From the IMG/VR virus record IMGVR_UViG_3300042988_000374, positions 1 to 64,000 of that record: DNA of 64,000 bases; one strand, 5' to 3'. Positions 14,644-58,956 of the stretch are shown in pieces. The notes below the pieces were generated by a model. The model had not been told where the DNA came from. It did not search any database and was given only the letters and a program-made list of their open reading frames with translations. Both the position numbers and the translations under genes were made by a program. Numbering within the stretch: position 1 is the stretch's first letter; each line of letters opens with the position of its first letter. The stretch is from a virus (Duplodnaviria; Heunggongvirae; Uroviricota; Caudoviricetes).

Positions 14644-14897
14644 CACAAGCTAAAAAAGTACTTTGGTTCAAAGATGAAAAACATGATAAAGTATGGGGTT
14701 TCATCGCCGTTGGTGATGAGCAATGGGTAACATTCTGGGGTCGCCGTGGCGCTAAGCTCCAGACCAAAGCATGGGAGGGCTCACTGAGTGATGGTATCGC
14801 CATGTTAGACAAGAAGGTTCAAAAAGGTTACCGTGAAGTGGGCGCCGACTTCTTAGATGATGTTTATCCAGATCTGGAAGAGTTAGTCCAGCAATGA
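14640..14897 (+). CDS. stand-alone WGR domain protein
   Basis: KVWGFIAVGDEQWVTFWGRRGAKLQTK matches the W-G-R signature of WGR domains (PARP/MolR-associated). Confidence 0.6.
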   Translation: MTQAKKVLWFKDEKHDKVWGFIAVGDEQWVTFWGRRGAKLQTKAWEGSLSDGIAMLDKKVQKGYREVGADFLDDVYPDLEELVQQ

Positions 14898-15076
14898 GTG
14901 AAGAAGTTAAATGCCTAATGTGGGGAGTATTTGTTGGTCTGTTTATCGCAGTGCTGGTGAATACTCTACCATTTGCTGATTCCGAGAAGTATCGTCGTGC
15001 TATCAAAGAATGTGAGCGTTCGTTACCACGAGATCAGCACTGCACTGTTGTTGGTGTGCCAGTAATTCGCTAGGAT

Positions 15077-25859: not shown

Positions 25860-26951
25860 ATGAAACAGTTAATCATCGCATTGTGTTTGTTTGCCTCTTC
25901 TGTAGTGAGCGCACAAACAACTGATCCCGTATCGGCAGTTAGTATTGCATTAACAGTTGGTGGATGGATCACCAAGGACAGCAAAAAAGTCTACTACGTG
26001 CGTGTTGAATCTACTGGTGATGACATTGAAAGTGCTCGTCATGGTGGATTCCGTAAAGCAGTTGAGTTGGCAGTAGGCACCCTTGTACTTGGTGAGTCGG
26101 AATCTGACGGCAAGCGCATGTTGCGGAATGACGTAGTTACCTATAGCAGCGGTTACGTTGAAGACTTCAAAGTAATCAGTAATGGTCCAGTTGGCAACAA
26201 GACACGTGTTGTGATGGACGTGTGGGTCAGTGATAGCAAGATTGCCAATCGTTTGAGCAGCATGGGACAGAGTACTGGTGCCGCCGTCAATGGTGCTGCC
26301 ATCAAGCGCGACTATGAGATTGATGCCGCACGTGCCGCTACTGAAGAAACTCGTCGCCGCAATGGCATGACTGTCACTGATATGGTACTTGCCGACTATC
26401 CGCGCCGTGCCACAAAAACAGCTGTGACTAAGACTTGGGTGGGTCGCAACAAAGAAGGCGCAGTCATCTTCAATATTGAAACTGTTACTGAGTTCACGCA
26501 GGAATATCTTGAAGCAGCAGCTGAAGTCCTCACACAAACTCGTCAGGGCTCTTCGAGTAGCCAACGCTATCCAACTGGTGTAAAAGTCTATACAGGCGTC
26601 TTTGGAAACACAAAAGGTTATTACGTAAACTCATCAGTTAAAGACAAGTGGGAAATCGCACTGTCCAAAGAAGTAAAGATGCGTATTGTTTATACCGATA
26701 CGACACCACATGTACTGTGCTACAGCGCTACGAAGCATGTGAATGGCATTCTGACTGGCTATGAACCACGTCTTGATGGTTACACTGGTCACAACATGGA
26801 TACTTTTGTTGTTGATAACAAGCGAGTAAACACGGTGTATGGCATTCACAGCAATCCTGCTAAGACGCCAACAGAAGCACAATTTGTAGATTGGCTGTCA
26901 AAAATCACTAAAGTGGAAGCACAACTGGTTGACGCGGACAAGTGTAAATAG
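25860..26951 (+). CDS. secreted protein
   Basis: RBS GGAGG; signal peptide MKQLIIALCLFASSVVSAQ; one of the few TAG stops. Confidence 0.55.
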   Translation: MKQLIIALCLFASSVVSAQTTDPVSAVSIALTVGGWITKDSKKVYYVRVESTGDDIESARHGGFRKAVELAVGTLVLGESESDGKRMLRNDVVTYSSGYVEDFKVISNGPVGNKTRVVMDVWVSDSKIANRLSSMGQSTGAAVNGAAIKRDYEIDAARAATEETRRRNGMTVTDMVLADYPRRATKTAVTKTWVGRNKEGAVIFNIETVTEFTQEYLEAAAEVLTQTRQGSSSSQRYPTGVKVYTGVFGNTKGYYVNSSVKDKWEIALSKEVKMRIVYTDTTPHVLCYSATKHVNGILTGYEPRLDGYTGHNMDTFVVDNKRVNTVYGIHSNPAKTPTEAQFVDWLSKITKVEAQLVDADKCK

Positions 26952-39577: not shown

Positions 39578-39756
39578 GTGACTTAAATGAATATAAAGAA
39601 TTACCTTCATTGGTAGATCCAGTACTCCAAAAAGAATTGGCAGCTAAGTATAAGCCAGCTGAATTCGCGGAGATGATGGAGCAAAGTCTAGACGACCTAC
39701 ATGGTATCGTTAAACGTATGGAGGATAGAGCAAATGCGCGTAAGGGATCTATTTGA
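39574..39756 (+). CDS. hypothetical protein
   Basis: ATGA overlap. Confidence 0.4.
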   Translation: MSDLNEYKELPSLVDPVLQKELAAKYKPAEFAEMMEQSLDDLHGIVKRMEDRANARKGSI

Positions 39757-40027
39757 GAGTTATGATGAATTACGAACATTAATACTGTTATCAACGTCAT
39801 GGTTAAAGAATATTGAACAGCAAATTCTTAGGGCTGAAGAATTATATGATTACACAAATGAACCATCTGATAGGCGCGACTTTATCGAAGCGCTCGATGT
39901 TGCGAAGGCGGAAATTATAAAGACAGTGAATAGTCCGATATTGACAGATACAACTGATCCGGCAGCAAAAAAGATAACTCAACAGTACACTGAATTGTAC
40001 TTTAAATTAATGAACAAACGAGTATAG
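39734..40027 (+). CDS. hypothetical protein (TAG stop)
   Basis: ends TAG 40025-40027. Confidence 0.4.
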   Translation: MRVRDLFESYDELRTLILLSTSWLKNIEQQILRAEELYDYTNEPSDRRDFIEALDVAKAEIIKTVNSPILTDTTDPAAKKITQQYTELYFKLMNKRV

Positions 40028-44195: not shown

Positions 44196-44458
44196 TAGAT
44201 CCAAAAACTGATATAATATCGAGCAATGGGTTTAGATTCCGTGTTAATATCAAGACCACTGATGAAGTCGAGCAGTACATCAAAGACCACTGGACCACCG
44301 TGGCACTGCCAATGAATGAATTCACTGACTCTGGGTTTAGATATCGAATCATCTTTTGGATAGACGAACACGCAACTGGCAAGTGGACTAGACTTCGAAA
44401 TACTTTTTACTTTGAAAAGGAAGTTGACTCCACTCTCTTTATCTTGACACACTTATGA
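44192..44458 (+). CDS. array paralog 4 (divergent C-terminus LFILTHL)
   Basis: ATGA overlaps both sides. Confidence 0.55.
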   Translation: MIDPKTDIISSNGFRFRVNIKTTDEVEQYIKDHWTTVALPMNEFTDSGFRYRIIFWIDEHATGKWTRLRNTFYFEKEVDSTLFILTHL

Positions 44459-44772
44459 AAATTGTATGGAATCGGAGCTTAGGCTGGAATATGGAGTTCA
44501 ACAAAATGGTAAGAAAATCACGATCAGTATCAGGAGTAAGACCCGTGAATGAAATGATTATCGAAGACGGTGCTGACTGCTATCCATGGACGGAATGCTT
44601 TATCTGGTGGCCGGTTAAGACTGTCACTGGGCAACGCATCTGGTGGATAAAGGCATTCAAGCGTCGAGTATGGATCATGTGGGGCGGCGGATATCACATG
44701 GAGCCCGAGACACAATTTGCAACGGCGTTTGATTTATTGGTGTATAATCCAAAGGTAATGGGGCGAGAATGA
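44455..44772 (+). CDS. array position 5: unrelated Trp-rich insert gene
   Basis: ATGA coupled but lacks family motifs. Confidence 0.5.
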   Translation: MKIVWNRSLGWNMEFNKMVRKSRSVSGVRPVNEMIIEDGADCYPWTECFIWWPVKTVTGQRIWWIKAFKRRVWIMWGGGYHMEPETQFATAFDLLVYNPKVMGRE

Positions 44773-45149
44773 ACTTCAAAGAATGGTTAATCGACATCGA
44801 GTCTGAGACTGGTGGCTACAAGCAAGGCGATTTGATTGTCGCCTATGGGAGAGGAACAGGAAAGAGTATCATGAATTCATATGCAGATCAATGGTTCACT
44901 ACTATGGCCGAGAGAAAGATTGAAATCACTCATGGTGAATTAGTTGGTAAACAAAAATTCAAGTACTGGGTCAAAGTAAATGGACCGTGGGGTCTTGAGC
45001 GCCAAATTAATGAGTGGTGTTCGGAGACTTATGGCGCGCTTGACACACCTGGCTACAATAACCCACGCTGGGACAACAGGCGGAAGTTTGGTGTGTACAA
45101 CTTCAAACACGAAGCTGATGTTACATTATTCTTATTGAGGTGGGCATGA
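44769..45149 (+). CDS. array paralog 6
   Basis: EWCSETYGALD; ends VTLFLLRWA. Confidence 0.6.
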   Translation: MNFKEWLIDIESETGGYKQGDLIVAYGRGTGKSIMNSYADQWFTTMAERKIEITHGELVGKQKFKYWVKVNGPWGLERQINEWCSETYGALDTPGYNNPRWDNRRKFGVYNFKHEADVTLFLLRWA

Positions 45150-45391
45150 AACATTTAACATTCGATATCGCAGAAGAGCGGGCACCAGAAGTTACTAAAT
45201 GGTGCCGAGGCGCGTTTGGTAAGTCTAAACAAAATGATACGCGAATTAGCAAGATTCTTTGGTGGCGCAGAAAGATGAACACTTATGACTGCTCCCCAGA
45301 TTTTAGTAGGAACATCCATGTCAAACACATTGTCAGATTTTACTTCAAGCGTGAAGCCGACTACACCCTATTTTTACTGAGGTGGGCATGA
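45146..45391 (+). CDS. array paralog 7
   Basis: KWCRGAFGKS; ends YTLFLLRWA. Confidence 0.6.
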   Translation: MKHLTFDIAEERAPEVTKWCRGAFGKSKQNDTRISKILWWRRKMNTYDCSPDFSRNIHVKHIVRFYFKREADYTLFLLRWA

Positions 45392-45624
45392 AAGTAAACA
45401 TGTTTAATCATTGGTTCAAGTACAAGGTGCCTATTGACGACCACATTGAACAAATCAAGGTCGCCATCTTCAATGATGACTATCACATCAGATATAGCAA
45501 TCTCTGGCACTGGCTCAATGAACGCCATGATGTTGGTCAGTATTACAACTGGCGAGAAAGCAGAAACTACTTGTGCTTCAACCACGAGAGCGCCTACTTA
45601 ATATTTTTATTGAAGATATCATGA
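45388..45624 (+). CDS. array paralog 8 (C-terminus LIFLLKIS)
   Basis: ATGA overlaps. Confidence 0.55.
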   Translation: MKVNMFNHWFKYKVPIDDHIEQIKVAIFNDDYHIRYSNLWHWLNERHDVGQYYNWRESRNYLCFNHESAYLIFLLKIS

Positions 45625-46055
45625 AGAGTATATTCACACGATTGCGGGCTAAGTTTGATCGCTTTTTACACCAGCGATATCTTGAGAAGATGGGTTTGAC
45701 AGAGGAAGCATATCAACGTAAGACAGACTCACTGGTTAACTACCGAGCACTGACTGTCAGTAGCTTTTATCATGGGTACAAGGCAGTACACACATTCCAA
45801 GATGCTGGCACGGCGCCATGGAGTATGTTTGACGATTGGCTTTCAGGTCTACATAGTATACGCGAATGGTGCGAGGAGAATTGCAGCGGTAAATGGCGAG
45901 ACGATATTCATCGAGTAATTAAACAGACATCAATCGGCGTGAATGGTGAGACTGAAGAACACTTGTTTATGAACGAGATAGGTGGTCGAGACGTGGTATG
46001 CTTTGCATTTGAGAATGACGCAGACTACTTGTTATTTTTATTGAGGTGGGCATGA
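45621..46055 (+). CDS. array paralog 9
   Basis: EWCEENCSGKW; ends YLLFLLRWA. Confidence 0.6.
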   Translation: MKSIFTRLRAKFDRFLHQRYLEKMGLTEEAYQRKTDSLVNYRALTVSSFYHGYKAVHTFQDAGTAPWSMFDDWLSGLHSIREWCEENCSGKWRDDIHRVIKQTSIGVNGETEEHLFMNEIGGRDVVCFAFENDADYLLFLLRWA

Positions 46056-46252
46056 AGCAAACACATGCAAAATATAAACGATTCAAGTATGTGGTAGAGT
46101 GTAAACGCACCGCTGACTGGTGGTCTGGTGGCTGGCGTGAACGCAGTGAATGGTGCGTGGAGAATATTGGCACTGACTGGGATTACTTTGACGAGTGCTT
46201 CACGTTTAAAGATTCAGCTAGTGCGACACTCTTTATTTTAAGGTGGAAATGA
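46052..46252 (+). CDS. array paralog 10
   Basis: EWCVENIGTDWD; ends ATLFILRWK. Confidence 0.6.
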   Translation: MKQTHAKYKRFKYVVECKRTADWWSGGWRERSEWCVENIGTDWDYFDECFTFKDSASATLFILRWK

Positions 46253-46464
46253 GTATGATAATTGCAGGTGCTGGTAAATATTGGGGCAACATTGTTGACT
46301 ACTACTGGGACAATATTGATCCAACTAATGATGGGACTATCTGGGAGTGGTTAGAGCGTGAGTATAATTGTAAGAGGTCTCGCGCTATTAACAAAACGTA
46401 TACCTGGGATTTAGTATTTGATTCTGAAGAATACTATTCCCTATTTTTGCTGAGGTGGTCATGA
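46249..46464 (+). CDS. array paralog 11
   Basis: ends YSLFLLRWS; ATGA. Confidence 0.55.
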   Translation: MSMIIAGAGKYWGNIVDYYWDNIDPTNDGTIWEWLEREYNCKRSRAINKTYTWDLVFDSEEYYSLFLLRWS

Positions 46465-46694
46465 GGGTAATACCAGAACATCACAACCATCGAGTGAAGA
46501 TCAAACTCAAAGAGAATATTTGGGATATCGCTGGTCGAATTGAAGATATACAAACGATACGTGATTGGATTGCTGAGTTGACAGAATGGCAAGAAGACGA
46601 GTATACTATGAACATTTACAGTAGCGGCGGCATCATGGACGTATGGTTCAAGAAGGAAGAGTACGCTACACTTTGTGCACTGAGGTGGTCATGA
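46461..46694 (+). CDS. array paralog 12
   Basis: ends ATLCALRWS; ATGA. Confidence 0.55.
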   Translation: MRVIPEHHNHRVKIKLKENIWDIAGRIEDIQTIRDWIAELTEWQEDEYTMNIYSSGGIMDVWFKKEEYATLCALRWS

Positions 46695-46945
46695 ACAGAA
46701 TTAGCTCTGAAATCTCTTTTGATATTTACAAACGATGGTTAGTACATTGCTACCCGGAGACTGGTCACGAGCGCCTAAAGTGGACTCGTAACTTTGAGCA
46801 ATTGAAGTTGCACTACGGTGATGGACGAGACTTTGATTTGTTTGTTTTTGGTTGTGGCGGTGCCATTAGGCAAGAACACCATAAGCGATTCATTGAATTT
46901 GCCGACAGTAGCAACATGACGTTATTTGTATTGAGGTGGGCATGA
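46691..46945 (+). CDS. array paralog 13
   Basis: ends MTLFVLRWA; ATGA. Confidence 0.55.
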   Translation: MNRISSEISFDIYKRWLVHCYPETGHERLKWTRNFEQLKLHYGDGRDFDLFVFGCGGAIRQEHHKRFIEFADSSNMTLFVLRWA

Positions 46946-47160
46946 AGCTAGCTAAAGAAGATCAACTCCACGTATGGTGTGGTGGTAATAAACCAAACAT
47001 ATTCAAGCATCTGGTATACCACAGAATCGAACGTGATGTGCTCGAATGGTTACATGACAACTTTAAACGCGGCTACGGTATTGATTACTACTATCGTGAT
47101 GGTAAGATTTGGTTCAGGAATTCACGAACTGAGCTCCTATTTATATTGAGGTGGGCATGA
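46942..47160 (+). CDS. array paralog 14
   Basis: LEWLHDNFKRGYG; ends ELLFILRWA. Confidence 0.6.
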   Translation: MKLAKEDQLHVWCGGNKPNIFKHLVYHRIERDVLEWLHDNFKRGYGIDYYYRDGKIWFRNSRTELLFILRWA

Positions 47161-47438
47161 ATTACTATCACTATGACCGAGCCCCAACATGGGTCCATAC
47201 ACGGTGTCCGCCAGAAGAACGTAGCTCAAAAATCTATTACTTTGATAGTGGTAACTTACCTCAAGGTGAGTTAGACGGTGAAGGAGTGCGATGGTATCGT
47301 TTGAACTGTTCATATTGGTTTGGTGATTGGATTGAACTACAAGATAAGAAGCTATGGCGGTCTTATGGTGGACGGCATCGTGCTATCTATATTGTGCGTG
47401 AAGAATTAATGACCCTGATTAGGTTGAGGTGGCTATGA
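47157..47438 (+). CDS. array paralog 15
   Basis: ends MTLIRLRWL; ATGA. Confidence 0.55.
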   Translation: MNYYHYDRAPTWVHTRCPPEERSSKIYYFDSGNLPQGELDGEGVRWYRLNCSYWFGDWIELQDKKLWRSYGGRHRAIYIVREELMTLIRLRWL

Positions 47439-47641
47439 AGTATGATTTTACTATGTTGAAGTTAGGATACATGATGGCGGATCTCCACGCATGGTTCGTT
47501 GACAACAACTACAAGTACGGCGTTGACTGGGAATTCTTGCGAGATGAGATAATCACCGACGCCACACGAAGCTCAATCATCACCGGCATTACTATTGAGG
47601 ACAGTGAAGTGGCAACACTCTTTACACTGAGGTGGATGTGA
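47435..47641 (+). CDS. array paralog 16
   Basis: ends ATLFTLRWM; TGATG coupling. Confidence 0.55.
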   Translation: MKYDFTMLKLGYMMADLHAWFVDNNYKYGVDWEFLRDEIITDATRSSIITGITIEDSEVATLFTLRWM

Positions 47642-47916
47642 TGAACAGAATCATCAATGGTGATATGGAACAGTGGGCGCGGGCAATACTGTTCACACTG
47701 GAAGCGACACATACAAATGAAAACGGTACACTTTACCATGTGGTGTCTACCAGCGAGAGACCGATCATAGATTGGTTGACTTCACACGAACGTTGTGATA
47801 CACTTGATATCGGAAAAGGCGATGTGCTATATTTTGGTGACGCTGGCAATTCAATCAAACGATATTTTGCCGTGAGTGACCGACTATACACACTGATGAT
47901 ACTAACTTGGAAATGA
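47641..47916 (+). CDS. array paralog 17
   Basis: ends YTLMILTWK. Confidence 0.5.
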   Translation: MNRIINGDMEQWARAILFTLEATHTNENGTLYHVVSTSERPIIDWLTSHERCDTLDIGKGDVLYFGDAGNSIKRYFAVSDRLYTLMILTWK

Positions 47917-47917
47917 C

Positions 47918-48205
47918 GTGCAGGTAAACCCCGTATTTGACGACGAAGATTGGATAGAAGTGACTGACATGGAGGAATCTATTATGCTAACTGAGCGCAA
48001 GAGTAAGTACAAGCACAAGGTAACTGTGCCAAGTGACTTCACTGGTGATTTAGAACGGTCAATACGCGACTGGTGCACTGAACAGTTTGGAGCTGGTGGT
48101 CGTAATCGGCACTTGCGCTGGCGTTTTGGCTGGGTACAAAACAAGTCTACGTTTTACTTTAAGAATGACTGTGACGTGTCGTTGTTCCTACTGCGGTGGG
48201 CTTGA
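47918..48205 (+). CDS. array paralog 18 (start 47918 GTG, or 47984 ATG behind GGAGGA)
   Basis: DWCTEQFGAGG; ends VSLFLLRWA. Confidence 0.5.
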   Translation: MQVNPVFDDEDWIEVTDMEESIMLTERKSKYKHKVTVPSDFTGDLERSIRDWCTEQFGAGGRNRHLRWRFGWVQNKSTFYFKNDCDVSLFLLRWA

Positions 48206-48438
48206 TGTATTGTAAAGTGTACGATAACATTTGGGGCAAAGATTACAACATCGTGAGCTTCAAACTACCAGCTGATAGTAAACATGAACTAGTTGACTGG
48301 TGTTTAAATTCATTTGGACCATCTGGCTACGATCACGTTGCTGGTAAAGCACGATGGATTAACAATATCAGATTCGGTGAGATTCATTTTTATAATGATG
48401 CTGATGTAAACTTGTTTTTATTACGGTGGTCATCATGA
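48205..48438 (+). CDS. array paralog 19
   Basis: DWCLNSFGPSGY; ends VNLFLLRWSS; TGATG. Confidence 0.6.
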   Translation: MYCKVYDNIWGKDYNIVSFKLPADSKHELVDWCLNSFGPSGYDHVAGKARWINNIRFGEIHFYNDADVNLFLLRWSS

Positions 48439-48842
48439 TCATTAAGAGCAGCGTATCAGTTACTGTGGATGACATCAAAGAAAGGGCACTATCATTAGAA
48501 GAGGCGCGTTTGGATGCTATCGCGCAACAATGGGCACGTGATATCGATACGGAGGTACTCATGTCAGTAATGGGTTGGAATTCAATCAAGGTAAGCGAAG
48601 GTCGTGTATATGGTGCTCGTTACCATACAGCGGAGCCGGCTATCGATGGCTACGGTCTGACTACAGGTTTTGTCAGTGGTGACTGGAATGATATGCTAGC
48701 GTGGTGTGTTGATACATTTGGCGCATCCGCGTCTGTATGGGAAGCTACACCAGTTGTTAATGAACGCTGGTATGCCAACAACAGTAAATTCTGGTTTAGA
48801 CACGAAGCTGATTTAACGTTATTTTTATTACGGTGGTCTTAA
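48435..48842 (+). CDS. array paralog 20
   Basis: AWCVDTFGASAS; ends LTLFLLRWS. Confidence 0.6.
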   Translation: MIIKSSVSVTVDDIKERALSLEEARLDAIAQQWARDIDTEVLMSVMGWNSIKVSEGRVYGARYHTAEPAIDGYGLTTGFVSGDWNDMLAWCVDTFGASASVWEATPVVNERWYANNSKFWFRHEADLTLFLLRWS

Positions 48843-49075
48843 TGGCACGTAAAGTGTTTGCTACAGATAAACGCGGCTACTCATTGTGGGGCGATGATCG
48901 TGATATCATGGTGGCACTAGACTATCATCGTGACGTTCAGGAATGGTGCGAAGCTAATGGCGTAGTGGCTATAGTAAATTGTAGTTTGTTGTCAGCTAAA
49001 GCATTTGGTGTAATCTTATGGCGAATTGATGATGAAGATCAAAGACTTGTTTTTATATTAAGGTGGGGAACGTGA
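48842..49075 (+). CDS. array paralog 21
   Basis: QEWCEANGVVA; ends LVFILRWGT; TAATG. Confidence 0.55.
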   Translation: MARKVFATDKRGYSLWGDDRDIMVALDYHRDVQEWCEANGVVAIVNCSLLSAKAFGVILWRIDDEDQRLVFILRWGT

Positions 49076-49281
49076 TGGATTACAAATACGGGCGCACATG
49101 GCATACGGTAGATGCAGGTGATGGCGCATATCACCGTGAAGTTATTAAATGGTGTAAAGCACAATTTGGTTCGCATCCGCTGGTACCAGACAGTACTTCA
49201 CGCTGGTTCAATAGTATTGCACACACAATTCATTTTAGAGACGAAGAAGATTTAACGTTATTTTTATTGAGGTGGTCATGA
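49075..49281 (+). CDS. array paralog 22
   Basis: RTWHTVD...IKWCKAQFGSH; ends LTLFLLRWS. Confidence 0.6.
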   Translation: MDYKYGRTWHTVDAGDGAYHREVIKWCKAQFGSHPLVPDSTSRWFNSIAHTIHFRDEEDLTLFLLRWS

Positions 49282-49631
49282 GTAATTTAATAGACAGACT
49301 TAATCGAATTTTTACACAGCAGTCTATTGCTGATACCGCATTCAAAGTAAAGATGCCAGTACCTGGTGAAATAGACAGCTATTTTACTCTAGATAATGGC
49401 ATGGTAGGCATGAAAAGTTACTTGATGCCATCAGACCAAAAGGAGAGTGTGACTTATGGTAGTGAGTATCGCGTAGTTGATTGCAAGGCGATTGGCATAG
49501 CACCTTGGGTAGAAGAACAAGATATCACATTATGGAAATATTCGAGTCATGATGGTGAGTGTCATCCAGCATTTGTCAGATTCGTCATGCACGAAAGTCT
49601 AGTAACTTTGATGATGCTACGATGGGCGTAA
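49278..49631 (+). CDS. array paralog 23
   Basis: ends VTLMMLRWA. Confidence 0.5.
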   Translation: MSNLIDRLNRIFTQQSIADTAFKVKMPVPGEIDSYFTLDNGMVGMKSYLMPSDQKESVTYGSEYRVVDCKAIGIAPWVEEQDITLWKYSSHDGECHPAFVRFVMHESLVTLMMLRWA

Positions 49632-49825
49632 GAATCACAAACAAGTTCGCCATCGATGAAGACAACAAACACATCAGTATTCATGGATTGGTAGATCACT
49701 CAGAGTTTGACAAGATTCGCACATGGTGTTACAATCAAGGAGAATCGTTTACGTGTTATTTGACTGCTGGTATTGGCTACAGGACAGATGCTGACTTAAC
49801 ACTATTCTTATTGAGGTGGGAATGA
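49622..49825 (+). CDS. array paralog 24
   Basis: TWCYNQGESF; ends LTLFLLRWE. Confidence 0.55.
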   Translation: MGVRITNKFAIDEDNKHISIHGLVDHSEFDKIRTWCYNQGESFTCYLTAGIGYRTDADLTLFLLRWE

Positions 49826-50010
49826 CTCTCATTTATATCGACCATGACCGCTGTAACATGAATGACTTGTCTGACTGGTTGCTGGAGAATGTCGGCGATG
49901 CGTATGACTGGAGCGAGATGCGTTACAACTGGGAATGGGGAGAGTACTATGAATTCATCAAGATCAGAAGCGAAGAACACGCTACTCTGTTCCGTCTACG
50001 ATGGTGTTGA
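49822..50010 (+). CDS. array paralog 25
   Basis: DWLLENVGDAYDW; ends ATLFRLRWC. Confidence 0.55.
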   Translation: MTLIYIDHDRCNMNDLSDWLLENVGDAYDWSEMRYNWEWGEYYEFIKIRSEEHATLFRLRWC

Positions 50011-50035
50011 GTATTACGCAGTTGATACATTCTTC

Positions 50036-50197
50036 ATGCGATGGACTGCTGTTCAACAGATTAAATTGTGGCTAGTGGAGAACTTTGGCGCAAATGGTGG
50101 CGGTCTATGGCGCATGGACGATGATGGCACGTTCATGTTGTTGCTAACAGAAGAGGTACACACATTAACATTATTAAGGTGGGGCAATGAGCTTTAA
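50036..50197 (+). CDS. array paralog 26 (start uncertain)
   Basis: LWLVENFGANGGGLW; ends TLTLLRWGNEL. Confidence 0.45.
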   Translation: MRWTAVQQIKLWLVENFGANGGGLWRMDDDGTFMLLLTEEVHTLTLLRWGNEL

Positions 50198-50402
50198 CAT
50201 TTTTAAGAATTACCGAGCAGAAGAAAACACAGTGAGACGCTTGAAAGAAGAGCCGTTGCTGGAGGAGCGACCTACCATGTGTGCGATTGGTCTGCATGTT
50301 TGGAGACGCTGGAGTGAAGCCTATGACGAGGGTATCTATATCAAACAATATCGCCACTGTGAAGCGTGTGGTAAGATCAACTTTAGACGAGAAATCAAAT
50401 GA
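50187..50402 (+). CDS. array position 27: unrelated zinc-ribbon insert gene
   Basis: C..H...HCEACGK; no family motif. Confidence 0.45.
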   Translation: MSFNIFKNYRAEENTVRRLKEEPLLEERPTMCAIGLHVWRRWSEAYDEGIYIKQYRHCEACGKINFRREIK

Positions 50403-50641
50403 ATCAATACAACTTTACTCGCCGCTGGCACACGGTAAATTACGACTTCGACAATCACGATGCAGTTTACAACTGGTGCACGGAAAACTTCGGCAAACAA
50501 GATAAGAAACCGGATGCTTGGTCTCGCTGGCGCAACTTATACGCTTGCGCTATTCAATTCAGAGACGAAGCTGACTATGTGCTGTTCCTGCTTCGCTGGG
50601 GAGATTCCGAAGCTGAGTACTATGCGAGTTCTGAGTTATGA
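50399..50641 (+). CDS. array paralog 28
   Basis: RRWHTVN...YNWCTENFGKQ; ...YVLFLLRWG plus short tail. Confidence 0.6.
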   Translation: MNQYNFTRRWHTVNYDFDNHDAVYNWCTENFGKQDKKPDAWSRWRNLYACAIQFRDEADYVLFLLRWGDSEAEYYASSEL

Positions 50642-50853
50642 TAGTAGTACCCAATAAACAGTGGTATTGGCAAACTCTGCGCACCATCAACAAGAATCTC
50701 AATTTTGGCAAAACATCAATCAATGACATTGGTGTTCACATTGAAGAGCAATACGGTGTACGATGGGTACTAAACGGCGATGGTTTAATCTCCGATCAAT
50801 ACGAAGTGGTTGATGATGAAAAGCACACCATATTCCTGTTAAAGTACGCATGA
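50638..50853 (+). CDS. array paralog 29 (variant LLKY C-terminus)
   Basis: ends TIFLLKYA; ATGA. Confidence 0.5.
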   Translation: MIVVPNKQWYWQTLRTINKNLNFGKTSINDIGVHIEEQYGVRWVLNGDGLISDQYEVVDDEKHTIFLLKYA

Positions 50854-51068
50854 AATATACCGTTAAGTATTATACCACAAGTGTAGTAGAGACCATGCGC
50901 GTAGTCAATGAATTACGTGGTACACTGAAGCAACACATTGACTTTGAGTTCGCCTGGCACTCAACTAAATGGTGTGACGTATCTTTTGCTGTGATTGACG
51001 AAGGTCACGTGGTATTCAGTTTTGCAACAGAAGAACTGGCAACTTATTTTACGCTCAAATATCTATGA
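50850..51068 (+). CDS. array paralog 30
   Basis: TKWCDVSF; ends TYFTLKYL; ATGA. Confidence 0.5.
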   Translation: MKYTVKYYTTSVVETMRVVNELRGTLKQHIDFEFAWHSTKWCDVSFAVIDEGHVVFSFATEELATYFTLKYL

Positions 51069-51358
51069 ATTTCGCAGTAGCACATGACGCCATATTCGAT
51101 GGCTTACACTTGAAGGAGATCAAGATGGTCCTAAAGGATTTTAAATTCACTGACCTACATAGCGATGTGGTAACATACGTTGATGGTGCACGATGGTACA
51201 CTGTTGCTGGTAATAAGGAAGTGGGCGCATGGCTCAGAAGCGCATTTGCTGATGAAGAAAAGTCACTGTGGTTCAGTCTAGGTCAAGCTAATTCAACCAT
51301 TGAACGTTTTGATGTTCATGAAATGGTGCACACCCAGATCCTGCTCAAATTCACATGA
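51065..51358 (+). CDS. array paralog 31
   Basis: ends TQILLKFT; ATGA. Confidence 0.5.
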   Translation: MNFAVAHDAIFDGLHLKEIKMVLKDFKFTDLHSDVVTYVDGARWYTVAGNKEVGAWLRSAFADEEKSLWFSLGQANSTIERFDVHEMVHTQILLKFT

Positions 51359-51552
51359 AACAACATAAGAGACGTACCAAGACAATCGAATTAGTGAAAT
51401 GGCTCAGAGCTAATGGTGAGCGATTCACTGACTGGGACATATCTGGTGGATACACTAACCTAACTATCACTTTTAAGAATGAAAAGTTAGAGTTAGCATA
51501 CATCATGTTGTGGGATTGGGCGGACCCTGACCCAACCAGCAATCGTACTTGA
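51355..51552 (+). CDS. array paralog 32 (last, variant C-terminus)
   Basis: ends AYIMLWDW...; overlaps convergent minus-strand ORF by ~50 nt. Confidence 0.45.
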   Translation: MKQHKRRTKTIELVKWLRANGERFTDWDISGGYTNLTITFKNEKLELAYIMLWDWADPDPTSNRT

Positions 51553-51722: not shown

Positions 51723-52301
51723 TTACTCGTCGTCATCTTCGTCATCACCTTCCATATAGTCATTTTGCAACTTAGACCAGAGAGACTTGTCGTCATAAGC
51801 TCGGTACTGAGTCTCATTTGGCATCAAGATTCTGAACTTGTCACCGTATTTGAGTAGCAGGTAAGTTACCATCTCCGAATCAAGTAAGTCGCATACCGTA
51901 TATGCTGATGAACACGCGCCATGAATTACCTTGAATGGAGAATGACGGACGCCTTCTTCTTTTAAGGTATTACCAAATGATGTACTGTGAAAGATGATTC
52001 GAGAGATGCCTAGTCGCTGATTGCGAAGACGCACTTTGTCGAACAGGGAGAGTTTTGAGATGGTGGCGCAATTGTCATCGTCAATGGTGAGTAAACACTC
52101 TTTGAATTTAATGCTGCCCTTGGTGTGCGAGTTGTCTGGTGTTTCTTTGGTGGACCATGGTATCTCTGCTGAGACATGATTCACGTAAAACGACTCGCCG
52201 TGTGTTTTGATGATCCACATGGGAATTGTTGGGTCTTCAAGATGTTTTTTGTTAAAGTGAAAAACCAAGTCTTTACATGCGTATTCAATCTATTGTGTCA
52301 T
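51723..52301 (-). CDS. hypothetical protein with internal YLLLKYG motif; likely start ATG 52301 with an in-frame TAG at codon 4 (alternative start TTG 52268 or ATG 52220)
   Basis: minus strand reads AAGGAGAttaaaATG ACA CAA TAG ATT GAA ... in frame with the long ORF; contains EMVTYLLLKYGDKF; acidic C-terminal tail. Confidence 0.45.
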
Positions 52302-52332: not shown

Positions 52333-52863
52333 TTAAGGGTCAATTGTAACCACGAACTCTTTGCAATCAGAATCGTTCATTCGCTCAATGAGAACATTGT
52401 GTCCACTGCGATCAGTAAACATATAGCTCTCGCCTTCAGCCAAACGATGTTGATATGCGATGGAACCATCACCACTCCATATGGTAACGTATGGTTTCAA
52501 AATTGTTGGGTTGTTCAAACCAAAATAAACATCTGGTTTTACTCCATGGCATTCGACAATACCTGCGACATCAGTTGCGCCCATCTGTTGGTAGAACAGT
52601 GCCCAGAATGCCATGGAAATTGGATTCGTAATTGTGCGCAGTGAGATTACACTAAACGAACCTGTCTTTGATGGCCAAGGTTGTGTCTTCTTATTGATTG
52701 TGTAGGTGTCTACTTTGTTGATGGCAATTACTGTAGACAACATTAACTTATGGTCTACGGTCATTCCAGGGCCAGCTTTAACTACCACATGCGTATCTTT
52801 GTAGAAGAGATTACGGAGTGGATTAGTCCACTGTAGAATGGCGTGTTTTAGTAGTCTCAGCAT
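52333..52863 (-). CDS. hypothetical protein
   Basis: ATG immediately after the upstream gene's stop (TAATATG). Confidence 0.45.
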   Translation of the reverse strand: MLRLLKHAILQWTNPLRNLFYKDTHVVVKAGPGMTVDHKLMLSTVIAINKVDTYTINKKTQPWPSKTGSFSVISLRTITNPISMAFWALFYQQMGATDVAGIVECHGVKPDVYFGLNNPTILKPYVTIWSGDGSIAYQHRLAEGESYMFTDRSGHNVLIERMNDSDCKEFVVTIDP

Positions 52864-52864
52864 A

Positions 52865-53107
52865 TTACTTCTTCTTCGAAGCTGGTGTGTCCATCTCTGG
52901 TGAAATTCTGGACATTTCTTCTTCAGTTGCGTATCTCGTTGGCACATTAGAGAATGGATGGAAGCTATCTGGTGTAAAGATACTAACCGGCTTCCAATAT
53001 TTGTGGAGCAAATTATTAACTACAACGATAGCACTAATCACCACTAGAAACCCTAGTGCTGTTAATATACTACCTGCCAAAAAAACTGCTGCTTGATCCA
53101 TGTCCAT
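52865..53107 (-). CDS. small membrane protein
   Basis: TM helix LAGSILTALGFLVVISAIVVV. Confidence 0.45.
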   Translation of the reverse strand: MDMDQAAVFLAGSILTALGFLVVISAIVVVNNLLHKYWKPVSIFTPDSFHPFSNVPTRYATEEEMSRISPEMDTPASKKK

Positions 53108-53147
53108 GATTATTCCTTAAATAGTTCGTAGACTATTTAGTATTGTG

Positions 53148-53222
53148 TGGTGCGTGTGGAGAGAATCGAACTCTCATTCAACGTTTTAGAGGCGCTTTCC
53201 TTAACCACTAGGATACACACGC
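53148..53222 (-). tRNA. tRNA with CUA anticodon (amber suppressor-type), CCA encoded
   Basis: minus-strand cloverleaf: acceptor GCGUGUG/CACACGC, D-stem UCCU/AGGA, anticodon loop C-U-CUA-A-A, T-arm GAGAG-UUCGAUU-CUCUC, discriminator A, genomic CCA. Confidence 0.65.
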
Positions 53223-53230
53223 ATGAGACT

Positions 53231-53259
53231 ATTGTATCAGACTCTGATACAATAGTCAA
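53231..53259 (-). promoter_or_regulatory. sigma70 consensus promoter (TTGACT-N17-TACAAT) driving the tRNA; embedded in a 26-bp palindrome
   Basis: minus-strand TTGACT = 53259-53254, TACAAT = 53236-53231; -10 ends 8 nt before the mature tRNA 5' end; plus-strand tattgtatcag-actc-ctgatacaata is an inverted repeat. Confidence 0.65.
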
Positions 53260-53270
53260 CAAGTTTTGGA

Positions 53271-53789
53271 TTAACTGTTAAGTACTTTAGCTACGCTATT
53301 CATCACACTAGCGATGCGACCAATGTCACGTAGTTGTTCCACAGTGTAGCCTTCTTGCTTTAGCGTGTCGTAATGTGCTTTCACACAAAAGTGGCATTTC
53401 CCCACAATAGAGGCTGCTAAACTATAGGCTTCGAAACGAGCCTTTGTAGTGCCGCCATGAGAGGCGATAGCATTCATACGCAGTTGTGCTGGTAAGCCTT
53501 TGAGTTGTTCGTCATCAGCCATTTCAACGTACGGATACCATACGTTGTTCTGGGCCATGATTGAGGCGGCGGTCAGGGCCGCATCTGCTTCCACTCTATT
53601 AGCAAGTTGGCTATGAATCCAGGTCCACAGTTTACTGTTGCCCGTAGCAAATGCCGCCGCTAGAGCGACTGCTTCTGCTTCCTCGACGGGAAGTGTCGAA
53701 CGCTTAATTACTGCGTCAATATTTAATTTTGTGTCTTTAGCATAATCAGGAATACTTTGTTCCTTTAATGCGTCTACCCATTGTGTCAT
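53271..53789 (-). CDS. ahpD: AhpD-family alkylhydroperoxidase core protein
   Basis: CHFCVKAH = CxxCxxxH AhpD active-site motif; RBS AAGGA. Confidence 0.65.
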   Translation of the reverse strand: MTQWVDALKEQSIPDYAKDTKLNIDAVIKRSTLPVEEAEAVALAAAFATGNSKLWTWIHSQLANRVEADAALTAASIMAQNNVWYPYVEMADDEQLKGLPAQLRMNAIASHGGTTKARFEAYSLAASIVGKCHFCVKAHYDTLKQEGYTVEQLRDIGRIASVMNSVAKVLNS

Positions 53790-53799
53790 AATTTTTCCT

Positions 53800-54423
53800 T
53801 TAATATTTTCCACTCGCTAATACGATCTGACATATATGTTCGAGTCTTTCTATATGTTCAAACGCCCGCCATGGTGATGTATCGATAGCAACAACACCGT
53901 GACCTTTTATACCTACAATATCATACCCGATATTACCATAATGGTCTAACTGCAAATTCTCATGGCAACGATCGGCAAGTTCTTGACTAATCGGCGCAAC
54001 ATCTCCCACATTAGGTGCTACCTTAGTATAGCGACTAAGTTCCGGAAAGTCGTTGGCAAGACTGCCTAACTCTATACCACGATGCATAGCGGCCACGCAA
54101 TATGTAGGGTGTAGATGTACTACTACTCGGACATCATTACTGTGCTGACCCATGTTCTTCTGTAAACCAAAATGAAGTGGAATCTCTCCGCTAGGCTTTA
54201 GATTTGAGCTAATGTCGGTGTATGGTTCCTCGCCCCACATCAGACTACTAATAACCCTAATCTTTTTGAACTGATCAGGTTGCATTGTTTGCTTACGGAC
54301 GCCACTGGGTGTGATATAAAAGTGATCACGGTCGTGATGACGAATTGAAACATTGCCATCACGACTGGTAATCCAGTTGCGTCTATATGCTTCAACAAGC
54401 GTGTCGCATATAGTTTCTAACAT
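53800..54423 (-). CDS. class II aldolase/adducin-family protein
   Basis: GNVSIRHHDRDHFYITPSG matches the class II aldolase N-terminal motif; HLHP metal site. Confidence 0.65.
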   Translation of the reverse strand: MLETICDTLVEAYRRNWITSRDGNVSIRHHDRDHFYITPSGVRKQTMQPDQFKKIRVISSLMWGEEPYTDISSNLKPSGEIPLHFGLQKNMGQHSNDVRVVVHLHPTYCVAAMHRGIELGSLANDFPELSRYTKVAPNVGDVAPISQELADRCHENLQLDHYGNIGYDIVGIKGHGVVAIDTSPWRAFEHIERLEHICQIVLASGKY

Positions 54424-55274
54424 TTATTTTTTCCTCTTTCTTTATATAAATTTTCTATCGTTCTTCTTGAATAACCATTTCTAATGGCCTCCGACATACT
54501 TCTATAAGTGACACCAAATACCTCGATTGATTTAGAATTTGCTGTTGCTTTTTTATAGTTTGGATTTTTACTTCCGAGTTTAGCATTGGATTTATTAATA
54601 CTCAGTTGTTCGGATTTACCAAGTTTCCATCCTTCTGGTATAATGTCACCATGTTTTATGGTTGAATTGTTTACGCCGTCGGTAATAAATTGGCGTTGAT
54701 ACATACCGTTTTGTTGTCCGACATTCGCAATTCTATTTTTCTCGATCAACCAATCAGGCTGCCCATGCCACCAGCCTTCTGGCATTACCTCATCTCTTTT
54801 CAATGATCTGATCGCTAATCCATCGGTGATGTAGACTTTACCTTTATTTTTTTCTAATTTATTTTCAAGGGTTTTCTGACAAAAGCCTGGCCACCAGCCT
54901 TCTGGAATTTCCTGACCTTTGAAGCATACTTTATCAATTATTCCGTTAGTGATAGGAATTTTTCCAGTGTGTAATTTTCTTAGATAATCACGAGCGGCGT
55001 TTTTAGTCGTGGTATAGTTATACTTGTTCATAAGCATACTAGCAAAAGACATTTTTCCTTTGTTTACGCCAGTGGTCATATGAACAAGTAATTTATGACA
55101 AAAACGGTGCTCGTCGTAAGTAAGATTCACTAGATTGGTTGGATCATCGCTACCTCCCATAGACCTAGGCACTATATGATGACTTTCAATATACTCATCT
55201 TCTGGTAGAGTCCTATTTTGAGCGGACTCTATTAGTTTATAGTATATTTTAGCGTAACGATTATCCAAAAACAT
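54417..55274 (-). CDS. HNH homing endonuclease with PEGW repeat modules
   Basis: HHIVPRSMGGSDDPTNLVNLTYDEHRFCH; repeats IPEGWWPG / MPEGWWHG / IPEGWKLG; inserted between aldolase and ahpC. Confidence 0.7.
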   Translation of the reverse strand: MFLDNRYAKIYYKLIESAQNRTLPEDEYIESHHIVPRSMGGSDDPTNLVNLTYDEHRFCHKLLVHMTTGVNKGKMSFASMLMNKYNYTTTKNAARDYLRKLHTGKIPITNGIIDKVCFKGQEIPEGWWPGFCQKTLENKLEKNKGKVYITDGLAIRSLKRDEVMPEGWWHGQPDWLIEKNRIANVGQQNGMYQRQFITDGVNNSTIKHGDIIPEGWKLGKSEQLSINKSNAKLGSKNPNYKKATANSKSIEVFGVTYRSMSEAIRNGYSRRTIENLYKERGKNKC

Positions 55275-55276
55275 CT

Positions 55277-55822
55277 TTACTTACCTAACGTATCAGCGCC
55301 GATTTGTCTATTGCACTGGCATAACTCTCCGGTTTGCAAACTATCAAGAATACGTAGAGTTTCTTCTGGTGAACGACCGACGTTCAAGTTGTTAACAGTC
55401 ACGTGTTGGATAACGTTGTCAGGGTCAACGATGAATGTTGCACGGAGTGCGGCACCTGCTGGCGCATAAAATACACCAAGTTGTTCAATTAATGACAACT
55501 CACCGCGCTGAGTATCAGCGAACTGAGTGTGTGTTAACTTCTTCAAGTCAGCGTGAGCATTTTGCCACGCGGTCTTACAAAACTCATTATCAGTACTGCC
55601 TGTTAGCAAGATAGCATCTCGATCAGCAAAGTCACCTGCCAATTTGTCATATGCTACAATCTCTGTAGGGCACACGAATGTAAAGTCCTTTGGATAGTAC
55701 ACAATGATCTTCCACTTGCCCTCAAAACTTTGATCTGTGATCGTGTAGTACGCATCTTCTGGTTGACCTGGTTTAACGCCTGTTACTGCGAACGCTGTTA
55801 ATTTATCGCCTACTGTTTTCAT
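55277..55822 (-). CDS. ahpC: peroxiredoxin AhpC (2-Cys Prx)
   Basis: FTFVCPTEI peroxidatic Cys motif; C-terminal resolving Cys; RBS AAGGAGA. Confidence 0.85.
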   Translation of the reverse strand: MKTVGDKLTAFAVTGVKPGQPEDAYYTITDQSFEGKWKIIVYYPKDFTFVCPTEIVAYDKLAGDFADRDAILLTGSTDNEFCKTAWQNAHADLKKLTHTQFADTQRGELSLIEQLGVFYAPAGAALRATFIVDPDNVIQHVTVNNLNVGRSPEETLRILDSLQTGELCQCNRQIGADTLGK

Positions 55823-55881
55823 ATGTTTCTCCTTAGTATTAATGAAATCTATCAATTATATGTTCTCGATGAACATAATGT

Positions 55882-57704: not shown

Positions 57705-58340
57705 AACTCATAATAACAGAATACAAATAGTAGTTCAACTTATTTGGATTGGCAATTCTGACATGGTGAACTGCGCTTTGTGTCACAGTTTGTACAAGTC
57801 TTGTGGTTTAACCAGGTACGTGGGATAAACGTAGTCTCATACTTTGCTGGTTTGTCACTACTGCATTGTTTAGTTTGAATGATTGGCATTGGTGCCTCCT
57901 ATACTAATACAACGATTTATCGAGTGTATACGTTGACAGAATTTGAATTATATTTTGTGGTATACACTATTATTGTCGCGCTGTCAAGTGTTATGGACCG
58001 AATTTTGGAAGCAAAGTTATACACATGTTATACACAATTTGAGTCGGAAGTATCACACTAAAGATGAACATTTATTCACAATTCGCGCAAAGTAGTATAT
58101 TATTTTGCGCAAAATGCGGTCGGAAGTATAGCACTATGGTGTGTAGTGGTGTTGTGTTAAGGTGAACTCAAAAGATGGTGTTTTTATATATTATTAAATT
58201 GGATAAATTAGTAATTTGCGAGTATGCGTAGGCGACTAGCCGGAGCAATCGAAGCAAATTGTGTGTACTCGTCGAAGACGGGTACCACGGATAATGGACA
58301 CTGAATTGTGATTGTGCGTAGCACCACTATGATCCTGTAC

Positions 58341-58368
58341 AAAAGCAAAAGAGACCCTGAGGTCTCCT
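58341..58368 (-). terminator. rho-independent terminator
   Basis: gagacc-ctga-ggtctc with minus-strand T-run (plus aaaagcaaaa). Confidence 0.6.
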
Positions 58369-58392
58369 TTGTGTAGTATGCGAATTTCCAAT

Positions 58393-58956
58393 TTAGAAGA
58401 ACAAGAATAGTCCATTAAGTGATAGAGCTACTCCGATTGCAGCTACGCCAAAACTTGCCCAGAACATTGCCATAGATACCGCTAAGATTGAAGCTGATAG
58501 TACCACGATAGCTAGTTGATAAGCTGTTGATGCGTAACCGATCCATGGTGAGCCCTTCTTAGCTTCTTCGCGGGTAGCTTCCATAGCACGTGCGCGTTCA
58601 GCGATTTCTTTTTTGTCAGCGTCCATGCGCTCCTTTTCAGCAGCAAACTTTTCTTTGAGTTTTGGATCAGCTGTGGTTAGAGATGCAATCTCGTAACTTA
58701 CACCGCGCCCGTTCTTGGCCTGATACTGCGCCCAGGCATTATTCGCACCTAGTGTGTTGTTCAATACGGTTGAACCTAATTTGCCGCCGTACCAGCTGTT
58801 TACTGCCAAGAGTAGAGCAAATACAGAGATTACCATACCTGCGCGGTCTTTAATTTTGGCCTCCCGCTCCGAACGAGAGCCCACTGGTGCAGCTGGTGCA
58901 CCTTCGTCTTTTGGTTCTTTGTTGATTAGTTTTAAGATTGAGTCGTGTAATGCCAT
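58393..58956 (-). CDS. membrane protein (two TM regions around a charged coiled segment)
   Basis: hydrophobic helices MVISVFALLLAV and LAIVVLSASILAVSMAMFWASFGVAAIGVAL. Confidence 0.5.
   Translation of the reverse strand: MALHDSILKLINKEPKDEGAPAAPVGSRSEREAKIKDRAGMVISVFALLLAVNSWYGGKLGSTVLNNTLGANNAWAQYQAKNGRGVSYEIASLTTADPKLKEKFAAEKERMDADKKEIAERARAMEATREEAKKGSPWIGYASTAYQLAIVVLSASILAVSMAMFWASFGVAAIGVALSLNGLFLFF

Follow-up and report, generated by a model that had tools for sequence, protein, structure and literature searches.

CUA suppressor transfer RNAs (tRNAs) have been reported in jumbo phages whose genomes use the standard genetic code. In phage XacN1, in-silico read-through of all 18 amber stops gave no targets for its suppressors (PMC5852040), and a CUA suppressor is likewise found in the standard-code genome of RsoM2USA (PMC8504454). 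The suppressor tRNAs of these two phages and of the siphophage Summit were published without identified targets, and their presence in phages without visible recoding is still unexplained. In recoded phages, the recoded stops are found in structural and lysis genes, and early and replication genes keep the standard code; the loss of TAG stops and the gain of a suppressor have been proposed to precede recoding, and many of these phages have no genes for release factor 2 (RF2) or aminoacyl-tRNA synthetases (Borges et al., bioRxiv 10.1101/2021.08.26.457843). Here, we analyzed a CUA tRNA gene on a 64,000-nucleotide (nt) stretch of a Caudoviricetes genome, positions 1 to 64,000 of IMG/VR record IMGVR_UViG_3300042988_000374, hereafter the window. 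We extended the window to the right by ~20 kb through identical contigs (L004 and L039), bringing the total DNA seen to ~84 kb, while a leftward search yielded only a 3.7-kb contig. The gene probably encodes a genuine amber suppressor, predicted to be expressed, in a TAG-poor genome that uses the standard code, and recoding of late genes has no support in the 84 kb seen.

The tRNA gene is the only one detected by ARAGORN in the window, with the anticodon cta at position 34 (Table 1). It comprises 72 nt plus an encoded CCA, 75 nt in all, and the tRNA model of Rfam is covered in full by a match at 53151-53222(-) scoring 59.9 bits (E=1.9e-10; gathering score, 29). The minimum free energy (MFE) fold is a cloverleaf (-20.7 kcal/mol, z=-2.2). 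The acceptor stem has 7 base pairs (bp; GCGUGUG/CACACGC), the D arm (UCCU-AGUGGUUA-AGGA) has a 4-bp stem and an 8-nt loop with GG, and the T arm (GAGAG-UUCGAUU-CUCUC) has a 5-bp stem; the variable loop is 4 nt long (GAAU), and the discriminator is A73. More specifically, the anticodon stem, AGCGC/ACGUU, includes a G28.U42 pair and, at its base, a C31.A39 mismatch, the one non-canonical pair of the tRNA, followed by a 7-nt loop, CU-CUA-AA (C32 U33 C34 U35 A36 A37 A38), with U33 and a purine at position 37. The tertiary nucleotides U8, A14, G18-G19, A21, U33, G53-T54-T55-C56, A58, and C61 are all present, the exception to the conserved positions being U10-A25, which replaces G10-Y25. A sequence-only reading of the window had proposed a class-I tRNA of this length on the minus strand, with these arms, an encoded CCA, and a CUA anticodon, and ARAGORN, Rfam, and inspection of the sequence bear it out on every point. 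The gene product is a canonical elongator-type tRNA with anticodon CUA. A segment of 221 nt that takes in the promoter, the whole tRNA, and the first part of the next gene has the same sequence in Logan contig SRR35181316 (L031) and JGI contig 3300047552 (L033), which excludes an assembly error as the source of the CUA anticodon.

The label "tRNA-Pyl" is printed by ARAGORN for any CUA anticodon. Pyrrolysine tRNAs are recognized by a 6-bp anticodon stem, a 3-nt variable loop, a small D loop without G18-G19, and the absence of a T-psi-C consensus. We rejected this identity, as the tRNA of the window has an anticodon stem of at most 5 bp, a 4-nt variable loop, an 8-nt D loop with GG, and a canonical UUCGAUU T loop. 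Neither pylS nor pylBCD turned up among the ~59 larger open reading frames (ORFs; 50 in the window and 9 to its right) scanned with Pfam or PHROGs, and Rfam found no other RNA family near the tRNA.

We listed all ORFs of the window with TAG read as sense, and no coding-strand gene was split by an in-frame TAG. The ~20 kb to the right holds 25 intact genes (91% coding, with 14 TAA and 11 TGA stops) and neither a TAG stop nor an in-frame TAG; one of these genes encodes a 490-amino-acid (aa) protein with a GH19 endolysin-like domain. Overall, ~140 genes were examined, with zero in-frame TAG. When TAG was counted as sense, ORF coverage changed from 0.73 to 0.75 in the window (a gain of about 0.03) and from 0.84 to 0.88 in L039 (0.04), and the median gain at the loci around 99 similar viral CUA tRNAs was 0.03. 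No release-factor gene, RF2 included, and no aminoacyl-tRNA synthetase gene was found among the ~59 larger ORFs scanned. The association with TAG recoding drawn by the sequence-only reading thus finds no support in the ~84 kb, in which no genes are split and coverage gains only 0.03-0.04.

TAG is nevertheless rare as a stop, as had been stated before, although the earlier count of ~3 in ~150 ORFs does not hold: TAG ends 5 of 108 strand-consistent ORFs of the window, or 10 of 129 in a cruder ORF set, and none of the 24 strand-consistent ORFs or 25 called genes of L039. For the window and L039 together, the proportion is 5/132, compared to 16/86 in relatives that lack the tRNA (p=6e-4, Fisher test); with database gene calls only, it is 1/61 versus 8/47 (p=0.01). 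This depletion with respect to the tRNA-less relatives is suggestive, not secure. The commonest stop in the window is TGA (63/108), owing to a run of ~35 small ORFs (65-160 aa) that lie head to tail at ~43600-51550 (+), nearly all of them ending in TGA and overlapping the next start (ATGA). TAG remains a genuine stop in ~5 genes (Table 1). Read-through of the five TAG-ended genes would add 12-58 residues of unremarkable sequence, and the 363-aa ORF upstream of ClpX is the only site where it would fuse two genes. We considered a programmed read-through fusion at this site and rejected it as unsupported, since ClpX has a zinc-finger N-terminus and a promoter (26929-26957).

The tRNA has its own putative promoter on the same strand, of the sigma-70 type, with the -10 element ending 8 nt before G1 (Table 1). 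These two features had been predicted correctly, while the description of the promoter as perfect was too generous, as a consensus scan shows agreement at 10 of 12 positions together with a TG extended -10. Transcription would start ~1-2 nt upstream of G1. Promoter-like matches in the 9.5 kb around the tRNA are no more frequent than in shuffled sequences. Window-wide, sites with at least 5/6 matches in both hexamers number 33 versus 14 in shuffles, and sites combining TG with a 17-nt spacer number 12 versus 0.33 expected from shuffles, a 36-fold enrichment. Nearly all of these sites read TTGACA-N17-TACAAT(ACC), often with a TG extended -10, and nearly all lie in intergenic gaps; they are on the plus strand where the genes are, with two clear minus-strand sites of 17-nt spacing inside the minus-strand block that holds the tRNA (51.7 to 59.9 kb). 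The tRNA promoter, which has the cTGA-TACAAT-A context of the others, is a member of this phage-wide sigma-70-like family. The family looks like a regulon of early-type promoters read by the host RNA polymerase, and its window-wide enrichment indicates that the phage uses host-type promoters throughout the region, the tRNA having one of its own. We also observed that, of the five genuine TAG stops, three adjoin or overlap an element of a family promoter (15071-15082, TAG-GAT-TTGACA; 26949-26957, TAG-TACAAT; 40025-40033, TAG-TTGACA); TAG at these stops may be constrained by the promoter, or the proximity may be a coincidence.

A perfect palindrome covers the last four bases of the -35 element, the spacer, and the -10 element of the tRNA promoter. 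It had been given as 26 bp long, but a repeat search measures 31 bp, with arms that are 100% complementary (GACTATTGTATCAGA-G-TCTGATACAATAGTC; Table 1). It is the sole palindrome of its kind in the window, where 0 are expected by chance, and no comparable palindrome occurs at the 20 other family promoters listed (17-nt-spacer sites). As RNA, it folds into a 14-bp hairpin. We rejected the possibility that it is an intrinsic terminator, as no U-tract follows it. A reasonable guess is that the palindrome is a candidate operator for a dimeric regulator; alternatively, it is possible that the AhpD transcript ends in an RNA hairpin formed by the palindrome. Downstream of the tRNA, the terminator scan made no call at a second, AT-rich hairpin (53118..53139), which is probably not a terminator. 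As this hairpin is weak and without a U-tract, the tRNA is probably co-transcribed with the three downstream ORFs.

To place the tRNA among its relatives, we refer to Xanthomonas phages XacN1 (two copies of the tRNA) and Xoo-sp13, Stenotrophomonas phages RAS14 and CM1, and Ralstonia phage RsoM2USA as XacN1-type jumbo phages. When the 75 nt were compared with GenBank phages by blastn, the annotated "tRNA-Sup-CTA" of RAS14 and CM1 was among the best full-length matches, while the best local match was the tRNA-Trp(CCA) of Rhizobium phage RHph_TM30. Identity of the window tRNA to those of RAS14, XacN1 (both copies), and Xoo-sp13 is 64-75%. These five CUA tRNAs have G30-C40, C31.A39, and the loop CUCUAAA in common, and pairs 28-42 and 29-41 covary among them. 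The Xoo-sp13 tRNA (L038:298-373; MN047793.1 36791-36866) is an ARAGORN call in a GenBank record that carries no annotation for it. We further scanned the viral_contigs collection of IMG/VR with the pattern GCCTCTAAAAC-N11-12-GTTCGA, which matched at least 120 contigs; among the matches listed, ARAGORN called a CUA tRNA at 97 of 120 loci, which represent 80 unique sequences, and A73 is present in 63 of these. Together with four GenBank tRNAs and the window tRNA, these make a set of 85 unique sequences, in which all stems covary and are 93-100% paired except for the D-stem pair 13-22 (89%) and both end pairs of the anticodon stem, 27-43 (formed in 60/85) and 31-39, which is C.A in 83/85. As the pattern demanded C31 and A39, the scan shows that C.A is abundant, not that it is universal. 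The window tRNA fits an operational class defined by GCC-UCUAAA-AC at 29-40 with a canonical T loop, a class whose boundary is arbitrary; most members also have G1-C72, C2-G71, and A73, as the window tRNA does. Exact-pattern scans for the tRNA body returned nothing in two viral_contigs scans and one metagenome_contigs scan, sample 3300047552 being evidently not in the latter. The widespread C31.A39 arm suggests that phage amber suppressors follow a common design rule, one that might tune the choice of synthetase or the efficiency of decoding.

The most plausible residue for the tRNA to insert is Gln, followed by Trp or Lys. In Escherichia coli (E. coli), CUA suppressors tend to be charged by glutaminyl-tRNA synthetase (GlnRS) or lysyl-tRNA synthetase (LysRS), and a C31-G39 pair lowers acceptance of Lys and raises that of Gln (PMC1483225). 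Gln would be the most likely because C34-U35 attracts GlnRS and C31-G39 disfavoured LysRS in E. coli; position 31 is C here too, yet unpaired with A39, unlike the C31-G39 of the E. coli suppressors. Gln is also the sole outcome among TAG-recoded phages whose code is unlike that of the host (Borges et al., bioRxiv 10.1101/2021.08.26.457843). In a nearest-neighbour analysis of 409 unique tRNAs, the nearest sense tRNA was the tRNA-Trp(CCA) of RHph_TM30, 80% identical, which shares the T arm, 6/7 bases of the acceptor 5' strand, and the 4-nt variable loop, and whose anticodon loop differs at position 35 only. With the tRNA-Trp class as a whole, mean identity is 0.64, which does not exceed the values for other isotypes; the window tRNA has A73 while bacterial tRNA-Trp has G73, and the RHph_TM30 tRNA has U31-A39. 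With one 80% outlier and no signal by class mean, we rejected a firm isotype call.

The D arm and the absent residue 47 are Gln/Glu-like, and the matches in genome_contigs were only archaeal tRNA-Gln and tRNA-Glu of 45-58% identity (L017-L030). Along the same line, the D-arm/T-loop pattern TAGTGGTTAAGGA...GTTCGAWTC is confined, within the species-representative genomes, to the tRNA-Gln and tRNA-Glu of archaea (DPANN and others), with no bacterial match. Identities of 45-58% reflect shared architecture, not homology, and the pattern is no evidence of an archaeal origin. As for decoding, a shortened anticodon stem can boost stop read-through, by the opening of its top pair (PMC13092985); in the window tRNA the opened pair is instead at the bottom of the stem.

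Based on these results, the favoured explanation of a suppressor in a standard-code genome can be put as follows. Host RNA polymerase would transcribe the tRNA from ~1-2 nt upstream of G1, probably along with the three downstream ORFs, and a dimeric protein bound to the 31-bp palindrome may gate this transcription. A host aminoacyl-tRNA synthetase would charge the tRNA, most likely with Gln, possibly with Trp or Lys, and the charged tRNA would then compete with release factor 1 (RF1) at UAG. Given the standard code, the lack of in-frame TAG, and the few TAG stops in the 84 kb, suppression would mainly extend a few phage proteins and many host proteins ending in UAG. Several points weigh against this explanation. 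Expression, charging, and suppression are all predicted from the sequence alone, and the evidence covers ~84 kb, a part of the genome. The isotype evidence is ambiguous, with a Trp neighbour, a Gln/Glu-like D arm, and A73 and U35 that also fit LysRS, and the U10-A25 pair replaces the usual G10, an E. coli GlnRS determinant. The TAG depletion weakens to p=0.054 when the comparison is made with two relatives of similar GC content (GC). Moreover, the scan pattern itself required C31 and A39 and does not give the frequency of the mismatch among all phage CUA tRNAs.

Instead of extending UAG-ended proteins, the suppressor could license the translation of late genes, if a code-15-like recoding of TAG to an amino acid were confined to structural or lysis genes beyond the DNA examined. 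Recoded phages indeed keep their early genes standard, with depletion and the suppressor coming first (Borges et al., bioRxiv 10.1101/2021.08.26.457843). In the window phage, TAG is depleted as a stop, the timing of expression could be set by the palindrome over the promoter, and Pfam and PHROG scans of the ~59 larger ORFs in the 84 kb detected no gene for capsid, portal, terminase, tail, or DNA polymerase, so that a substantial part of the genome lies outside the DNA seen. We nevertheless consider such recoding unlikely, as the ~140 genes without in-frame TAG include the GH19 endolysin-like gene, lysis genes being the most recoding-biased class, and TAG is still a genuine stop in ~5 genes. 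The GC of 43% is not low, the tRNA promoter is of the same type as those before early and auxiliary genes, neither RF2 nor a synthetase is encoded by the scanned ORFs, there is no recoding in XacN1-type phages, which have a tRNA of this kind, and the loci of the 99 similar viral tRNAs gain a median of just 0.03 in coverage. Less likely again is a gated version of the code switch, in which a de-repressed suppressor permits TAG-containing structural genes elsewhere in a genome of ~150 kb or larger; if true, it would add a 43%-GC environmental lineage to the low-GC gut phages with late-gene recoding and provide an identifiable element for its transcriptional control.

The suppressor may also be aimed outward, in which case early read-through of UAG stops in the host, a competitor, or a defence system would harm or reprogram the proteome of the host and leave the TAG-poor phage unaffected. 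The early-type promoter, the few TAG stops of the phage, and the failure to find internal targets, here or in XacN1, would fit this idea, and the phage DnaK, ClpX, two ClpP, Hsp20, and methionine aminopeptidase could buffer aberrant proteins. We regard it as improbable, since the case is purely circumstantial and the chaperone genes are ~20 kb away on the opposite strand, with nothing linking them to the tRNA. Equally improbable, in our view, is that the gene arose recently from a sense tRNA by mutation of the anticodon, for example from a tRNA-Trp by C35U (CCA to CUA), and is neutral or decaying, with no selected suppressor function. Such an origin is suggested by the 80% identity to the RHph_TM30 tRNA-Trp(CCA), from which the anticodon loop differs only at 35, by the absence of the tRNA from all sampled relatives, and by the copies found being all identical, which leaves no within-lineage sign of purifying selection. 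The structure, however, is fully intact, with an encoded CCA and a family promoter of its own; the discriminator is A73, not the G73 of bacterial tRNA-Trp, the mean identity to the tRNA-Trp class is an ordinary 0.64, and C31.A39 is exactly as in the independent jumbo-phage CUA tRNAs while the Trp relative has U31-A39.

Table 1. Coordinates of the tRNA locus, the promoter family, the TAG-ended genes, and other genes in the window.
Feature	Position	Strand	Remarks
tRNA gene, anticodon CUA (reads UAG)	53148..53222	-	ARAGORN, Rfam RF00005, MFE fold
Sigma-70-type promoter of the tRNA	53231..53259	-	TTGACT -35; 17-nt spacer with TG extended -10; TACAAT -10
Perfect palindrome, 31 bp	53227..53257		15-nt arms and 1 central base
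AT-rich 8-bp hairpin	53118..53139	-	9 nt past CCA, no U-tract; RNA fold of 53100-53275(-)
80-aa ORF, one hydrophobic segment	52865..53107	-	first gene downstream of tRNA; called in L031 and L033
176-aa ORF	52333..52863	-	second gene downstream of tRNA; called in L031; no family match (Pfam, PHROG)
165-aa ORF	51723..52220	-	last gene of minus-strand block; called in L031; no family match
AhpD-like (CMD family)	53271..53789	-	Pfam PF02627; directly upstream of tRNA
Class II aldolase	53800-54423	-	
HNH homing endonuclease	54417..55274	-	Pfam HNH; PHROG 655, E=2.9e-27; TAG stop; read-through +58 residues
AhpC	55277-55855	-	
Family promoters, examples	10295-10323, 15077-15105, 15445-15473, 23178-23206, 25018-25046, 37233-37261, 40028-40056, 43530-43558, 49707-49735	+	
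Family promoters, examples	55910-55882, 53259-53231	-	the second is the tRNA promoter
363-aa ORF	25860..26951	+	TAG stop; in frame with ClpX, whose start is 4 codons later
108-aa ORF	39701..40027	+	TAG stop; read-through +12 residues; family promoter directly after TAG
59-aa ORF	14894..15073	+	TAG stop; read-through +21 residues; family promoter 3 nt after TAG
59-aa ORF	58236..58415	-	TAG stop; read-through +13 residues
Proteostasis block, contiguous	26964-36146	+	
ClpX	26964-28175	+	
M24 methionine aminopeptidase	28172-28915	+	
DnaK	29015-30901	+	
Hsp20	30885-31340	+	
ClpP paralogues (two)	32118-32789, 33030-33650	+	
Bax1-I/YccA-like membrane protein	35463-36146	+	
SPFH protein	16243-17094		

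In the direction of transcription, the genes around the tRNA are AhpC, the HNH endonuclease, the class II aldolase, AhpD, the tRNA itself, and the three ORFs (Table 1), of which the 80-aa ORF has no Pfam match and a marginal PHROG match. Homologues of AhpD number thousands in metagenomes, 88-98% identical and all on phage-like contigs. In the closest relative (L011, 98% AhpD identity), which has no tRNA, the alignment breaks off exactly at the AhpD stop codon, and the tRNA segment is therefore specific to this lineage. The tRNA is absent from all relatives fetched, that is, three IMG/VR records (L001-L003) and the AhpD-bearing contigs L007-L016. The peroxiredoxin pair AhpC/AhpD (53271-55855) is split by the HNH endonuclease and the aldolase; as relatives have the pair adjacent or with other inserts (131 aa, 250 aa), this junction is a hot spot for insertions. 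In a relative whose AhpD is 91% identical, an array of seven tRNAs (Arg, Ala, Glu, Ile, Asp, Lys, Gln; L007:9415-12328) lies beside an HNH endonuclease gene, at ~3 kb downstream from AhpD, where the equivalent region of the window phage has the CUA tRNA alone. We tested these seven as kin of the CUA tRNA and rejected them, the sequences being unrelated. NAD+ salvage genes, a NadR-like cytidylyltransferase/NUDIX protein and a nicotinamide phosphoribosyltransferase (NAMPT), were observed at 283-1302 and 4409-5887 (+). Another relative (L012) has the NadR-like/NAMPT pair directly downstream of AhpC-AhpD, indicating that the region is rearranged.

The source genome is that of a large uncultured phage, with a GC of 43% in the window. 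Searches of GenBank phages by megablast and blastn gave no nucleotide match to the region; by tblastn, an 882-aa protein had no match, and the ligase, DnaK, and a 593-aa protein had distant matches only. Relatives are present in IMG/VR and in many metagenomes, one of them carrying T4 rIIB, and two proteins of the phage (P0121 and P0125) were found identical on a 149,889-bp JGI contig. The chaperone and protease set (26964-36146) is unusually complete for a phage. Further genes of the window encode an ATP-dependent DNA ligase, a radical-SAM protein, and a dCMP deaminase, besides long runs of tiny overlapping ORFs. To the right of the window (L004:2544-11703, L039:400-11209), we observed very large proteins with weak or faint Amidoligase_2 matches (645, 825/888 aa), the 825-aa protein having hundreds of homologues on contigs of up to 370 kb. 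This cluster is preceded by the 490-aa GH19 endolysin-like protein, includes a GGACT gamma-glutamyl cyclotransferase (174 aa), and is followed by a 738-aa paralogue with no recorded match. A 72-aa ORF at ~12 kb beyond the right end of the window (L039:11805-12023) matches Pfam eIF-1a (PF01176), with an S1-like IF1 fold, and is the second translation-related gene of this phage.

The finding alone does not alter current knowledge. Target-less suppressors are already known from big phages, and the locus adds one more clean example of them. It is at the same time a testable one, being a single stand-alone gene with a defined family promoter, a unique palindromic candidate operator, and the widespread C31.A39 arm. 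The genome appears to have shed TAG stops relative to sister phages without the tRNA. The C31.A39 design rule, if real, would be relevant to the evolution of the genetic code and to orthogonal tRNAs.

Compared to recoded phages (crAss-like, Lak, Agate, and Jade; code 15, TAG to Gln), the window phage is similar in having a CUA tRNA and few TAG stops. It differs in that ~140 genes have no in-frame TAG, coding density does not gain with TAG as sense, no RF2 or synthetase gene is present among the scanned ORFs, and GC is 43%; it also comes from an environmental metagenome, whereas the recoded phages were surveyed from gut metagenomes. With E. coli amber suppressors that have optimized anticodon arms (supF and the tRNA-Trp-derived su+7), the tRNA has the loop CU-CUA-AA in common. 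Like su+7, which inserts Gln, it may plausibly have arisen from a CCA (Trp) anticodon by one base change, given the 80% match to a phage tRNA-Trp. Unlike these laboratory suppressors, it is natural, phage-borne, and equipped with a promoter, with A73 and a C.A at 31-39 in place of a Watson-Crick pair.

The closest resemblance is to the XacN1-type jumbo phages. There too, in a comparison that leaves the RsoM2USA tRNA aside, we find a class-I tRNA with the CUCUAAA loop, G30-C40, and C31.A39, and with A73 and an encoded CCA, except for the second XacN1 copy, which has G73. These phages, which are of lytic type, are likewise large, use the standard code, and were published without identified suppressor targets; one of the window proteins (23235-25016) has an N-terminal domain with a homologue in them too. 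The window phage is only distantly related to them, with no nucleotide match and few protein matches. Its tRNA stands alone in 84 kb while theirs lie in an array of 20-50 tRNA genes or in a terminal repeat, its variable loop has 4 nt versus their 5, it has U10-A25 versus their G10-C25, and its promoter is embedded in a palindrome. In conclusion, the window tRNA is best grouped with the XacN1-type suppressors, as an acquired suppressor that, without visible recoding, accompanies a genome depleted of TAG.

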